DNA of 62,908 nt, the filler included, from Globobulimina sp. (lineage: Eukaryota): assembly GCA_003354225.1 (NCBI GenBank). It is 40 parts of 40 records of this genome, joined end to end, with 100 filler letters (N's around TTAATTAATTAA, not from the genome) between each part and the next. Parts side by side here need not be neighbours in the genome. Positions count along the whole stretch, not along the records: positions 59,861 to 61,334 come from PIVH01016116.1; positions 61,435 to 62,908 come from PIVH01016117.1; 38 more parts are not named here. One strand, written 5' to 3'. The translations under genes were made by a program, and so were the position numbers. The notes beneath the pieces were generated by a model. It was not told where the DNA came from and made no database searches. It saw nothing but the letters and a program-made list of their open reading frames with translations. Position 1 is the stretch's first letter. Every line of letters begins with the position of its first letter. Below, piece by piece: positions 2,216 to 62,908 of this stretch.

Positions 2216-3052
2216 TTACTGACTAATCATAGTTTTTGTGCTATTTTTGATTCCTTGAATTTGTTTCCGTTTATTAACAATGTATAACATCATCGCAAAT
2301 GTATAAATCACAATCTTTTCCTTAATCATAAACATCAATGCATTATTCAAAGACGACTGAGCTAACTTTGTAGTCAATCCACTATAAAATTTTTGCACAC
2401 CATATTCCTTATAGGTTTTGATAGCAATATCCAATGCACTCTGTCTTTTATTGTCTGTATTATCCGCTTGTTGATTATATTTAATATAAATTAAGGGATA
2501 ACAAAGAATTGTTGTGATTGCTTTACTTAATAAACCAGCAAAAAAGTCAATCACTGCCGATTTCAATCCAAATGAAACATTCATATATTTCCGTATACGT
2601 CCATATAAATACATATTCATCGCAGGATTAATGACCAATATCATACTCATTCCAAATCCAGACCAAAGTGCTGAAATTCCGTGTCTTTGCGATATATTTG
2701 TAATTATGATCGATGCGCTCGCATTGGCTCTATCTTCGCTGTGTGTGGTTTGCAATATCTTTTGAATGGTTGCTAATGGCGATGTAAATATTTGTGTCAA
2801 TATCCCAGCGATACAGCCTCGAAATAATGCGACAACCATTGGCATTTCGCGTGGATTATTCACTGCGGAATAACGTTTTTTCCAATCGTTTTTTAAAAAT
2901 GAATAGAAGAAAAAATAAATTCCATTAAATATAAATTTCTCAAATATACCAAATTGTAAACCACGATAAATATCCAATATATTGTCGCCTCGCAAATGAA
3001 TAAAATCTTCGATGATTGTTCTTATTGTAATGATACGGGCTGTTGAGTGCGC
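2216..3052 (-). CDS. Mitochondrial carrier family protein, PMP34/ANT1-like peroxisomal adenine nucleotide transporter (5' partial)
   Basis: Carrier repeats SPLATIQKILQ and YPLIYIKYNQQ, plus ALWSGF..ILVINPA and FYSGL..KL.QS.L. Confidence 0.85.
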   Translation of the reverse strand, partial: AHSTARIITIRTIIEDFIHLRGDNILDIYRGLQFGIFEKFIFNGIYFFFYSFLKNDWKKRYSAVNNPREMPMVVALFRGCIAGILTQIFTSPLATIQKILQTTHSEDRANASASIIITNISQRHGISALWSGFGMSMILVINPAMNMYLYGRIRKYMNVSFGLKSAVIDFFAGLLSKAITTILCYPLIYIKYNQQADNTDNKRQSALDIAIKTYKEYGVQKFYSGLTTKLAQSSLNNALMFMIKEKIVIYTFAMMLYIVNKRKQIQGIKNSTKTMISQ

Positions 3053-11164: not shown

Positions 11165-11482
11165 ATATTTCGTCGTTTCTGAAATTCATGTACAAAATTC
11201 GTTTCTGAAATTTCTCAGATTTATTTCGTCAGAAAACGTTTCTATAATTCTCGGATTTATATCTGTAATTCCTATAGAACGTTTCTGAAAATGTTCCTGA
11301 AAAACTTTTCTGAAAATGTTATAAAAACGTTTCTGAAAATATTCCTGAAAAACGTTTCTGAAAATGTTATAAAAACATTTCTGAAAATATTTATCAGATT
11401 TATTTCATCAGAAAATGTTCCTGAAAAACGTTTCTGAAAATGTTCAAAAAACGTTTCTGAAAATGTTCCTAAAAACGTTTTA
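11165..11482. repeat. Degenerate minisatellite built on AAAACGTTTCTGAAAAT(G/A)TT
   Basis: More than 10 visible imperfect copies. Confidence 0.9.
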
Positions 11483-13957: not shown

Positions 13958-14083
13958 AGTTTCAAACTCTCCTGGGGACAGGAAATGGTAGTCGACGCCT
14001 GGCTTTTCTCCAGTACGTGGCGGCCGTGTAGTCGCAGAAATGCTCGGAATGAGTGCCGAGAAGTCGGTAAGGAGTCGGCGAAG
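13958..14083 (-). CDS. gmk: Guanylate kinase fragment (bacterial-like, GC-rich)
   Basis: Hand translation gives LIPSISATTRPPRTGEKPGVDYHFLSPGEFE, the guanylate kinase signature. Confidence 0.85.
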
Positions 14084-24388: not shown

Positions 24389-24990
24389 CCTGCTACCAAT
24401 GATGCCACAAACACTGCCAATAATGCCGCTGAATCTGATACGGCACCGCTTAAACCATCCTCAAATACGGCTCCTTCACACGGCGGTAAAGAGCCAAATA
24501 ATGCCGTTATATCTGCAACGGCGCTACAAACCCATCCAAAACCATCCCCTTCACACCGTCACATTGTGCCACATTCCACCAATGATGTTACAAATACTGC
24601 TTCAAATGCCGATAAATCTGCTGCGGCGCCGCCTAAACCATCCCCAAATGCCACTCATTTACACGACGGCAATGCGACAAATACTGCGTCAAATGCCGCT
24701 AAATCTGATGCGGCGCTGCCTAAACCATCCCCAAATGCCACTCATTTACACCGTGGCACTGTGTCAAATGCCACTAATAGCGGCGTTAAATCTGCAAACT
24801 GCACAGCAACTCTCTCCCAAACACTGTGCCACTATTAACGCCGCCCTATCTGCAACAGAGTCGCAAATCTCTCCAAACTGATCCCCTTCACACTGTGGCA
24901 TTGTGGCCGATGCCTCTAATAATGCCGCTTTATGTGCAACGGCGCCACGAAGCTCTCCCAAATCATCCATTAATACCGCTCAACCTGCTA
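24385..24990. repeat. Degenerate tandem repeat, ~90-95-bp unit
   Basis: Recurrent AATGCCGCT.AATCTG..CGGCG...AAACCATCC..CAC; two near-identical units at about 24590-24770. Confidence 0.75.
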
Positions 24991-31516: not shown

Positions 31517-32356
31517 CAAACAAAAAGGTCACAAAATCGTAACGTTTCTGCGTTTCTGTCAAATATAATGTTAAAAATACTTTTAAATAGAGTTTATATG
31601 CCATCATGGATGAGCAATGAAAGAAGAGAGATTATAAAATCGTTTGGTTCGCAAATTATAAATGTAACAAAAGAAGAAGGCGGCTTTGTGGGTGCACTAA
31701 AATTACAAGAAAAATCATTAATGGATAATAAAGAAACAAACTCTGAGAATTTATTTGTAGCTCATCAATTTGATAATATATATAATGTAGAATCACATTT
31801 TTTATTTACTGGACATGAAATTTCAACACAATTATTTAATTTAGGTTTATGTGCCGATGTATTCATTGCTGGTGTTGGAACTGGCGGCACTGTGATGGGG
31901 ACTGGCGATCATTTGACAAAATATCACAATAAAAATATTGTTATTTATGCATTGGAACCAAAAAATAGTCCAATATTATCACTTAAAGTACATTTACAAG
32001 AGAATTCACATCGGATTCAAGGTATTTCGGATGAATTTGTGCCATCGATTATTGATTATAATAAAATAAATCAAAAAATAATTGGTGTATGGGATGGCGA
32101 TGCAATATTAATGGCACAGAAATTATCGAAATTTGGTTTAGGTGTAGGGATATCATCAGGTGCTAATTTTATTGGTGCGGTCACCACTGCGGAACATATG
32201 AAAAATAAAAATGCGTTTGATCCGATTGTTGTTACTGTTTTTCCAGATTCTTCAAAAAAATACATCTCAACTGATTTGTTTAAAACTGAACCTGAACCGG
32301 AACATTATAAATCGTTGGATGTTGAATTGATTGATATGCATTGTTTTGGAATGTAA
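31517..32356 (+). CDS. cysK: PLP-dependent cysteine synthase family protein (5' partial; putative intron ~31544-31590)
   Basis: FIAGVGTGGT, HRIQGI, GVGISSGAN, VVTVFPDS.KKY.ST. Confidence 0.9.
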   Translation, partial: QTKRSQNRNVSAFLSNIMLKILLNRVYMPSWMSNERREIIKSFGSQIINVTKEEGGFVGALKLQEKSLMDNKETNSENLFVAHQFDNIYNVESHFLFTGHEISTQLFNLGLCADVFIAGVGTGGTVMGTGDHLTKYHNKNIVIYALEPKNSPILSLKVHLQENSHRIQGISDEFVPSIIDYNKINQKIIGVWDGDAILMAQKLSKFGLGVGISSGANFIGAVTTAEHMKNKNAFDPIVVTVFPDSSKKYISTDLFKTEPEPEHYKSLDVELIDMHCFGM

Positions 32357-60880: not shown

Positions 60881-61602
60881 AGCTAGCTCTAATTATTAAA
60901 TTATTAAATGTGCGTATAAATTTATAATAAGTGGACTGGATCAGACAATTGTAACCATGCACATGACATATGATATGTTGTTTAATTACTTTGTTTTCGA
61001 TGTTTCAGCAATCTGTGAGCAGACACTTTCTTTTTCATGCAAAATGAAGATGATATGAGGAAACGGAAGAGGAAGAGGAAAGTGATTGATTTGATTTCTT
61101 GTTGTTTTTGTATGTTTGAATGGTTATAATTATTTACAGTATTTTTATACGATTCATTTCTTAAATTAAATATTTAATACGGTTTTGGCATTTTTTTTAA
61201 ATTTTTTAAAGTTACTGAAAAATGAACAATGCTGCCAGGAAAAGACGATCACAACTATTGGTAAGTGGTTACGTTATAAAATGTAGGACTCCATACATCC
61301 ATACAGATATTATTAGTATCATCCATGCATTCCANNNNNNNNNNNNNNNNNNNNNNNNNNNNNNNNNNNNNNNNNNNNTTAATTAATTAANNNNNNNNNN
61401 NNNNNNNNNNNNNNNNNNNNNNNNNNNNNNNNNNTTTGAAACTGTATTATTGGCATAGTTTGAAACTGATCTGTTTTTTCAGTTTGAGCCAGAATTATTA
61501 TTTCAGTTTCAAACTAAATTCAAGGATTTGGATGGAAATCCTTGCTCTAAAAATACAGATTTTTATGTAACATAATAATTAATTAAAATATAATATATAC
61601 AG

Positions 61603-62638
61603 TAAGAAAGAACGTAAGCAGCACGATAATCGATTAAAATTGGCAAATAATAAGAAAAAAATGGAAGAAGCTGGTCTTCGGAGGACAGCTATTGTATACC
61701 CACCGGTATGGATGTCTTATAATCGATGGAGTTGTGACCCTCTACATTATTGTACGAGGAGTTTCTGTCATATGGCAGATTATTTTGGAAAGAAATTGGG
61801 CGATTGGTATACACCAACGGCTCATGAATGCAGGGATGGTATCATATTAATATTTGAATCAGAAATGTCTATAAGATCTGGATTTAGTCAGAAATGGATT
61901 CAATCTGTGGAAAAAAAACACACGCCGGTGACAAATGCAACAGGTCCAATCATTTCGCGCGTGTTAAAATCTGTATTTGTGGAAGCATTGCAATTTGCGA
62001 TTCGATTCGAAGACAATGAATTTAGATTATTAATATTATTATTCTTATTTGAAATATGTGAAAATACGCACGAATTACATGGATTGATACAAAAATATAA
62101 TTTCGAGAATGGCACAGATGATGAAGCATATATAAGATATCAAAAATTGGCAATCCGAAGATATAAAATGATATTGCAATTAAATGATGAATACAATATC
62201 CCGTATGAGTTATTTCATTTTTATGGAATACGACATAAAATGCATTATTTGGTGACAATGAATACCAATAACCGGGGAATAAGTCTCTCCTCCACTTCAC
62301 CACAAGAAGCGGTACAGAAAAAAGACAAAAGAGTCACAAAGATGAATGCGAATATGGATCGAGATGAATGTTGTAGACATTCAGGTTTATCAAATATTGC
62401 ATTTGGATTGGATTATATCCGAATAACAAAAGAGAATTTAACGAAAAGAAAAGAAAGAAACATGAGACAACGCATTCGAAAGTATGATGATGATGATAAG
62501 GAAAAATATAACAGGATTGCCTCCAATTTCAAGCCAAGAGCAGCGAATATTTACAAGTTGATACAAGATCATAATTTCGATGATGACATTGATGGTGAAT
62601 TAAAGGAGATTCGCAACAAAAGAAAAAGGAGAAATTGA
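61603..62638 (+). CDS. Candidate Transib/RAG1-like DDE transposase, C-terminal exon
   Basis: Ordered motifs DPLHYCTRSF, NATGPIISR, PYELFHFYGIRH, STSPQEAVQKK; acceptor TATACAG at 61596-61602. Confidence 0.5.
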
Positions 62639-62908
62639 ATTGATTTAATAATGGCAATGACATTGAAAAAAGATGAAATTGATTTGTTTTTTTTGTTTTT
62701 ATATCTTGCCGTCGTACATATATATTTTTATATACTTTTTATGAGTTTGGTTTGTTTTTATAATAAGTTCGCATTGAATATTTCCATTGATTTAATAAAT
62801 TTACTTTTCCATTCACGGTCCAATCAAAACAAAATTCAGTCTCAAAGTAAAAAAGAAACGTTTCTTAGCATACAAAAAAACATTATAAAGGCGGCCGAAG
62901 GCCGCCGC

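Follow-up and report, generated by a model that had tools for sequence, protein, structure and literature searches.

The final 1.47 kb of a 62,908-nucleotide (nt) stretch of Globobulimina sp. DNA (assembly GCA_003354225.1; the whole stretch is called the window here) probably contains the last exon of a foraminiferal transposase gene that encodes a very divergent RAG1/Transib-like enzyme of the Asp-Asp-Glu (DDE) type. The RAG1/Transib-like assignment of the protein family is supported structurally and not by sequence profiles. The window consists of 40 unlinked contigs of 1474-1476 base pairs (bp) each, ordered by length, with N44-TTAATTAATTAA-N44 spacers between them, and since the contigs were joined artificially, any feature spanning two of them is a joining artefact. 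The exon lies on contig 40 (61435-62908); contig 1 (1-1476) is compared with it below. An earlier, sequence-only reading of this DNA had already proposed a RAG1/Transib-like transposase on contig 40, and that proposal gains support from fold ranks, language-model neighbours and the Asp/Asp/Glu blocks of the family, but not from any profile match.

Contig 40 harbours a single open frame at 61604-62638, with an in-frame TAA (61580-61582) directly before it, a stop-to-stop start at 61583, the first ATG at 61661 and the terminating TGA at 62636-62638. Based on the homologs, tblastn and the structural model described below, we delimited the last coding exon as 61603-62638 on the plus strand (344 codons from 61604, plus the TGA). 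The frame encodes the four peptides that the sequence-only reading had listed, DPLHYCTRSF, NATGPIISR, PYELFHFYGIRH and STSPQEAVQKK, all of them in the claimed order. A ciliate-type genetic code was considered and rejected, as under the standard code the longest open frame of a contig averages 290 of ~491 possible codons and 61583-62635 has no in-frame stop. The long frames suggest a eukaryote with the standard code, and matches in the window to Pfam domains of eukaryotes, Mito_carr among them, agree with this.

The encoded protein appears to belong to a small family, so far associated with foraminifera, whose members would be 900-1200 amino acids long and very distant structural relatives of RAG1, RAG1-like proteins and Transib. 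An exhaustive HMMER search of 1.84 billion representatives recovered 12 relatives at E<=1e-3, and for four the E value was <=1e-30. P0004 and P0009 are EukProt entries from the foraminifera Bolivina argentea and Nonionella stella, respectively, while nine other relatives come from ENA (7), Logan (1) and NCBI (1). The open reading frame (ORF) of the window matches only the last ~310-330 residues of the long relatives P0002 (1176 residues), P0004 (896 residues) and P0005 (1224 residues). This is the C-terminal third of each protein, and two blocks with an invariant Asp precede it. By tblastn, the similarity to these long proteins reaches 5' of the first ATG, its start being at 61586-61604, and six family proteins compared with the entire window gave matches in contig 40 only (best match elsewhere at E 0.036). 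A word-indexed homolog search, which is too insensitive at 30% identity, gave no match to the window ORF, and with residues 440-1176 of P0002 it recovered just this query; scans of metagenome contigs with the window ORF and P0002 gave neither relatives nor a longer locus.

Three acidic residues are invariant among the long members: an Asp that follows a hydrophobic stretch ([FYW]D[GA]), another Asp ([GA]DL) 92-95 residues past the first, and the Glu of STSxQE 334-338 residues past the second Asp. The Asp pair lies off contig 40, being encoded in the upstream part of the long homologs, whereas the part encoded in the window contains the invariant blocks DxLH, an LTN-like block, PY(E) and STSxQE. 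In the DPLH motif (61736-61747, plus strand; model residues 52-55) the D, L and H are identical in 6/6 members that cover it (7 aligned), and the P of PYELFHFYGIRH (62201-62236, plus strand) is invariant in alignment A1. For STSPQE (62291-62308, plus strand), S, T, S and E are invariant in 7/7 members of the same alignment, in keeping with the earlier claim that this segment carries the catalytic Glu; its Glu codon (62306-62308, model residue 242) would be the candidate third catalytic residue. The "two Zn-binding His" of that claim are both found in the PYELFHFYGIRH segment of the window, but their positions are not conserved across the family: in A1 (n=7) the first column holds H in three members, N in three and P in one, and the second holds H in five and N in two. 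The zinc site of RAG1 is formed by a Cys pair and a His pair and bridges both halves of the insertion domain. Elsewhere in the foraminiferal family, the H of DxLH is present in 6/6 members and another H 8-9 residues further on in 5/6. As a separate observation on this ORF, a 42-nt direct repeat (62084-62125 and 62558-62599, 79% identical) encodes LIQKYNFENGTDDE and LIQDHNFDDDIDGE, a repeated peptide motif in the protein.

The proposed relationship to RAG1 and Transib emerged from comparisons of predicted structures. The AlphaFold2 model of the window ORF (351 residues, 13-sequence alignment) is all-alpha, with a mean predicted local distance difference test (pLDDT) value of 68.5, a predicted template modelling score of 0.71, and residues 50-229 mostly at pLDDT 70-95. 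The full-length model of P0004 has a mean pLDDT of 50.8, with residues 90-562 below 50 and residues 602-795 at 80-93. Each model was aligned to 48,161 representative chains of the PDB with no prefilter. The window model ranked amphioxus RAG1-like BbRAGL first (6b40_E; Z 8.5, root-mean-square deviation 4.4, 164 aligned residues, chain residues 828-1064) and HzTransib second (6pqn_A; Z 7.7, 158 aligned residues, chain residues 246-491), with the RAG1 entries 6dbi_C, 4wwx_E, 6cij_A and 6oem_A at ranks 4, 8, 9 and 11 (Z 7.3-6.9). For P0004 the first six ranks were taken by 6b40_E (Z 9.6), 6dbi_C (8.7), 4wwx_E (8.6), 6cij_A (8.5), 6pqn_A (8.1) and 6oem_A (7.8), all above the best unrelated chain (Z 7.3). 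The matched domain is identical for both models, namely the part of RAG1 between the second catalytic Asp and E962; as the two models represent homologous proteins, they are not independent.

Residues 599-800 of P0004 aligned to residues 729-962 of mouse RAG1 in 6cij_A, and residues 598-801 to 728-964 in 4wwx_E. The invariant Glu of P0004, E800, is the last residue aligned to RAG1 962 in 6cij_A and falls within 2 residues of it in 4wwx_E. Since the P0004 range ends at E800, the alignment ends on or beside RAG1 E962, an active-site residue located on an alpha-helix (PMC10462144). The parallels that the sequence-only reading drew between DPLH and DALH and between NATGPIISR and NGNFAR are putative: the structural aligners give ranges only, and the N-terminal edges of these ranges disagree, with residue 50 of the window model paired with RAG1 790 (6oem_A) and residue 35 with 736 (6cij_A). 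The models thus place a predicted all-alpha insertion domain with a RAG1/Transib-like fold between the second Asp and the Glu, at Z scores that are modest for helical proteins, and put the putative third catalytic Glu after this helical domain, in a stretch with local pLDDT <50.

The sequence-only reading had also proposed a Foldseek comparison of the 61604-62638 product with RAG1 and HzTransib, and its outcome was mixed: the RAG1 entries had the highest probabilities in the lists for both models (0.28-0.44), but neither model had a match against the PDB at E<=0.001, the E values being ~1.

Language-model neighbours provided a second line of comparison. Among the 30 neighbours of P0005 residues 540-1224 (scores 0.92-0.96), 15 are in unnamed, mostly cnidarian clusters, 7 are in RAG1-named clusters, 6 belong to a set in which 38% of the members carry RAG1_RNase_H, and 2 to a set in which 12% of the members carry DUF1280. 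The window ORF itself had as neighbours 29 unnamed animal clusters and one cluster of RAG1 fragments, in which RAG1_ZnH2 (67%), RAG1_ZnC2 (56%) and RAG1_C (42%) are annotated, the same sub-domains that were matched in the fold search. Its "recognition" value of 1982 is under the 2300 mark and is weak alone.

The boundary of the exon was examined by comparing four runs of one organism (X1 to X4) with contig 40, and the records that came out were from X1, probably the source sample, and X2, only guessed to be RNA, with none from X3 or X4. Record 9 of X2 (1328 nt) is ~91% identical to contig 40 over 61603-62613 (88 differences) and carries 143 other letters before 61603, so that the join falls exactly after CAG (61600-61602). 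Read in the frame of the exon, these upstream letters encode ..IDYMND and then KKERK, the GAT codon being completed by the T at 61603, and ..IDYMND resembles ..HIDAMNHD of P0005 at the aligned place. An X1 record of 131 nt (record 3, 0 differences) spans 61550-61680, and the intron-exon junction is therefore real DNA. Another X1 record matches contig 40 up to 61579 and then continues as the reverse complement of an upstream exon end followed by GTATGTTTAT, and 19/20 letters of this exon end are identical to that of X2. In the simplest reading of these sequences, the last exon would be preceded by a GT-AG phase-2 intron of at least ~320 nt that is almost wholly a palindrome. The order would be the exon end, the GTATGT donor, 61435-61579 in inverted orientation, a centre that no record covers, the same segment in direct orientation (the distal arm of a foldback repeat on the plus strand, as assigned from the Tandem Repeats Finder output, motif matches, the X1 record and depth), and the intron 3' end at 61580-61602 (plus strand, from the X1 and X2 records), made of a 23-nt AT-rich tail with the phase-2 acceptor CAG at 61600-61602, followed by the last exon. 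The intron anticipated by the sequence-only reading is thus corroborated both by the X2 join to other sequence exactly at 61603 and by the matching exon end followed by GTATGT in X1 DNA.

Several observations weigh against a RAG1/Transib-like gene. Sequence-profile similarity to RAG1 or Transib was not found in Pfam or PDB profile searches: no RAG1-named Pfam family matched any of 7 family members at E<=10, and hmmsearch of the PDB with profiles A1 and A2 returned no RAG1/Transib chain at E<=10. For the window ORF alone, searches of Pfam, PHROGs (noise only) and PDB sequences (0 matches, single protein) likewise gave nothing. The Z scores of 7-9.6 are inside the range that, by the tool's own statement, helical models can reach with unrelated chains (~14 at best), and the top match exceeds the next unrelated chain by only 0.9 (window model) or 2.3 (P0004). 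The two-Asp region of P0004 is modelled at pLDDT <50 with only 3 sequences covering it, leaving its RNase H fold putative; the Glu also lies in a low-confidence stretch (local pLDDT <50) of both models. The zinc-ligand candidates vary, and there is no conserved Cys pair among the 7 members of alignment A1. CACAATG/CACAGTG-like heptamers of terminal inverted repeats (TIRs), which the sequence-only reading had put forward as a check, are missing from contig 40, as all 37 matches to CACWRTG in the window are elsewhere; any TIRs and target-site duplications would, like the upstream exons, lie outside this contig, which ends within repeats. As to the exon boundary, the RNA status of X2 is a guess, and its record 9 is a 91% copy and not the contig 40 locus.

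The absence of profile matches to RAG1 and Transib would also fit a DDE transposase of another superfamily without a solved structure, either CMC (CACTA/Mirage/Chapaev) or an undescribed one, for which RAG1 and Transib are merely the closest solved folds. The long coiled-coil N-terminus in the family points in the same direction, as does the distance between the second Asp and the Glu, which is 334-338 residues compared to 211 in HzTransib, whose triad is given as D125/D224/E435 in a preprint (10.64898/2026.08.26.747230). CMC is moreover treated as the nearest relative of Transib, with one tree for both in the same preprint, and the fold lists contain no CMC structure, which proves nothing on CMC membership. 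Yet no transposase Pfam family, CMC-type included, matched the family members at E<=10 either, the RAG1 clusters and domain sets far outnumber DUF1280, the sole other family among the language-model neighbours, and the Asp-Asp spacing of 92-95 is near the 99 of HzTransib. We consider another superfamily unlikely on this balance.

A chance resemblance between helical bundles, with the exon encoding a lineage-specific foraminiferal protein that is not a nuclease, appears less likely still. The helical background of the Z scores, the Foldseek E values of ~1, the "recognition" value below 2300 and the lack of a sequence-level link would all suit such a coincidence, but it would have to place six RAG1, RAG1-like and Transib chains at ranks 1-6 of 48,161 for P0004 and six in the top 11 for the window model, with the same RAG1 domain range aligned both times. 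It would also have to accommodate an independent language-model method naming the same RAG1 sub-domains and the family's invariant acidic residues, which follow one another as expected (Asp, Asp, Glu).

Under the RAG1/Transib-like reading, the exon would encode the all-alpha domain that is placed between the second catalytic Asp and the Glu in RAG1 and Transib, together with the Glu-bearing STSPQE segment and the tail that follows it at the C-terminus. One or more upstream exons, outside the 1.47-kb contig, would encode the RNase H-like portion and both of its Asp residues. By extension from Transib and RAG1, the complete enzyme would act as a dimer that binds the ends of the element and cleaves DNA at a two-metal D-D-E site.

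The exon is intact over its 344 codons and has kept every family-invariant residue. Of the 95 differences between the window and X2 record 9, the 40 that were listed fall on codon positions 1/2/3 in the proportion 11/8/21 (chi-square p=0.03); they change 37 codons, 20 of which are altered synonymously, compared to ~20% expected for random changes. The EukProt proteins of Bolivina argentea include a full-length member, P0004. The intact exon and the synonymous excess fit an active transposon family or a host-kept gene alike. Ciliates use domesticated transposases in programmed genome rearrangement and DNA elimination. That foraminifera keep a deep, hitherto unrecognised lineage of RAG1/Transib-type recombinases as host genes, intron-bearing, expressed and under purifying selection, perhaps for programmed genome rearrangement or DNA elimination in the course of their life cycle, is a speculation to which we give little credence. 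A dead, 5'-truncated transposase fragment abutting an insertion or deletion scar in place of an intron is highly improbable: although the ORF is broken at 61580-61582 with no upstream exon on contig 40, the relatives P0001, P0003 and P0006 are C-terminal-only ORFs and X2 is RNA only by conjecture, the break coincides with a canonical CAG acceptor, a matching exon end followed by GTATGT occurs in DNA of the same sample, the 344-codon frame is intact with all family-invariant residues, and the differences from the 91% copy show the synonymous excess.

Comparison of the candidate gene with known systems revealed both likenesses and differences. Transib (HzTransib, PDB 6PQN) is among the two best structural matches of the window domain and scores Z 8.1 with P0004, and it shares with the family the order Asp, Asp, Glu and a similar first spacing (99 in HzTransib). 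The foraminiferal family departs from Transib in having a second spacing that is ~125 residues longer, no similarity by HMMER profiles, an N-terminal extension of 300-600 residues including a coiled coil, and a gene with an intron. Transib is described as needing no RAG2-like partner (PMC10462144). With RAG1 and RAG1-like proteins (mouse 4WWX and 6CIJ, amphioxus BbRAG1L 6B40), the family shares the top match (BbRAG1L, Z 8.5 and 9.6) and the matched mouse range (728/729-962/964) between the second catalytic Asp and E962, but it is unlike them in its variable candidate zinc-ligand positions and in the lack of a sequence-level match.

Hosts of Transib and RAG1-like elements reported in PMC9435367 and PMC10462144 comprise animals, fungi, plants, one pelagophyte and bacteria, and the ancestry of RAG1 is traced via Transib and RAG1-like transposons found by sequence similarity. 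Tao et al. 2022 describe AanRAGL in the pelagophyte Aureococcus anophagefferens, plus bacterial and other eukaryotic Transibs (PMC9435367). Like AanRAGL, the gene on contig 40 would be of the RAG1/Transib type and have a single-celled, non-animal eukaryote as its host, whereas AanRAGL and the Transibs described in that paper were found by sequence similarity and come with TIRs and 5-bp target-site duplications, AanRAG1L being single-exon. Compared with the set in PMC9435367, the foraminiferal family escapes sequence searches and sits in Rhizaria. A full-text literature search found no paper tying Transib to foraminifera or Rhizaria, the listed matches for Rhizaria having been judged mostly by title. 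The RAG1/Transib kind outside animals is thus already known; what is new is a Rhizaria lineage missed by sequence searches, whose insertion domain is longer, whose N-terminus carries a long extension and whose gene has a palindromic-repeat intron. If the assignment is true, a family that can be connected to RAG1 and Transib only by structure and language models implies that the age or the spread of these enzymes exceeds what searches by sequence reveal, and reconstructions of the ancestral domain set gain a highly divergent outgroup. The intron bears on the interplay of introns and repeats in foraminiferal genomes.

The repeat that fills this intron is built on the motif GTTTGAAACT, of which the sequence-only reading had noted 3-4 copies upstream of the exon. 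We located two exact copies at 61458-61467 (plus strand) and 61505-61514 (minus strand), one cut by the start of contig 40 (61435-61443) and one degenerate copy (~61482-61491). The motif is in fact an 11-bp palindrome, AGTTT[C/G]AAACT, in an array of 24-bp period at 61435-61516 (Tandem Repeats Finder: period 24, 2.5 copies, 61457-61515), which includes a 14-nt perfect inverted pair (61456-61469/61503-61516). At <=1 mismatch the window contains 24 matches to GTTTGAAACT compared to a mean of 8.8 in shuffled sequences (largest 16; n=100), and the 11 exact matches are divided between contig 1 (8), contig 40 (2) and position 13958 (1), the last of which we rejected as a member of the repeat because it is a lone copy in GC-richer, coding-looking DNA. 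Summed word depth is 54.6, 21.5 and 14.6 over 61435-61584, compared to 3.9-5.7 over the ORF. At 61469, 61520 and 61579 the sequences of several X1 records depart from contig 40, showing that the foldback repeat is multi-copy, and contig 40 starts at 61435 because the intron repeat is a multi-copy, near-complete palindrome. The element thus has long inverted arms and many copies and lies between splice sites. Transposon-derived introns are known as introners. The contig 40 intron, filled by a multi-copy long inverted repeat, resembles these and foldback repeats or other repeats of the miniature inverted-repeat transposable element type, and the unrelated contig 1 also has an array of this kind in front of an AG-exon boundary; a difference is that no target-site duplication was recognisable at the ends of the contig 40 arms when one copy was inspected by eye.

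The sequence-only reading had linked contigs 1 and 40 as possible parts of one large transposon, based on the motif and on a GC mini-hairpin thought to be common to both. Contig 1 has a 24-bp array of AGTTTCAAACT units at 46-119 and a 15-bp CTATCCTATACTAAT repeat at 200-242. The latter leads into an ..ACAG boundary, ~125 bp downstream of the array, at which a 297-codon open frame (229/246-1122) starts. As this layout matches the end of the contig 40 intron, 46-245 of contig 1 may be an intron too, with repeats of the same family filling it. A foldback of ~193 bp (1221-1413) with GTTTGAAACT in its arms lies 3' of the contig 1 ORF; its arms (1221-1304/1329-1413) are nested, with 1221-1267/1367-1413 91% and 1270-1304/1329-1363 80% identical, and its centre is a GC-rich hairpin (~1298-1337). 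This hairpin is a different sequence from the contig 40 palindrome GCGGCCGAAGGCCGC, which has no second match in the window at <=2 mismatches, so that the supposed common hairpin falls away. The single-transposon idea fails as well, given that the ORFs are unrelated, the contig 1 ORF having neither a Pfam match nor similarity to the transposase family by tblastn, and that the common motif belongs to a multi-copy foldback repeat. Contig 1 was likewise rejected as the source of the missing N-terminal part, the six family proteins matching contig 40 only. The resemblance of the two contigs is a shared dispersed foldback repeat and nothing else.

Downstream of the exon, 62639-62890 (plus strand) is an AT-rich 3' flank or untranslated region that is multi-copy in the source sample, as judged from word depth and contig joins: the summed word depth is 11.5-21.1, compared to 3.9-5.7 over the ORF, and other contigs join at 62648/62649. 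The GC palindrome at the end of contig 40 is located as previously claimed, with GCGGCCGAAGGCCGC occurring a single time in the window, at 62891-62905 (0/100 shuffles). The GC-rich palindrome as a whole (62891-62908, no strand assigned) is a unique match that extends past the contig, and a loose end in run X1 behind 62894 adds at least 25 further GC-rich palindromic letters, giving a longer GC palindrome. It is the likely cause of the assembly break at the 3' end of contig 40.

Elsewhere in the window, a mitochondrial carrier ORF at 2216-2992 (minus strand; Pfam Mito_carr, 1.9e-32) has best matches of 56-84% identity in the foraminifera Globobulimina turgida, Bolivina argentea, Elphidium margaritaceum and Nonionella stella, making a foraminifer the most likely source of the DNA. 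A tandem array of CGTTTCTGAAAA-type units at 11269-11480 (period 23/48 bp, ~8.6 or 4.1 copies), with shorter echoes at 11173-11212 and 31543-31558, is a family distinct from the GTTTGAAACT repeat. Finally, a GC-richer contig contains an 87-bp tandem repeat at 24590-24794 (~2 copies, 83-94% matches) and CACAGTG/CACTGTG palindromes at 24757, 24822 and 24891.

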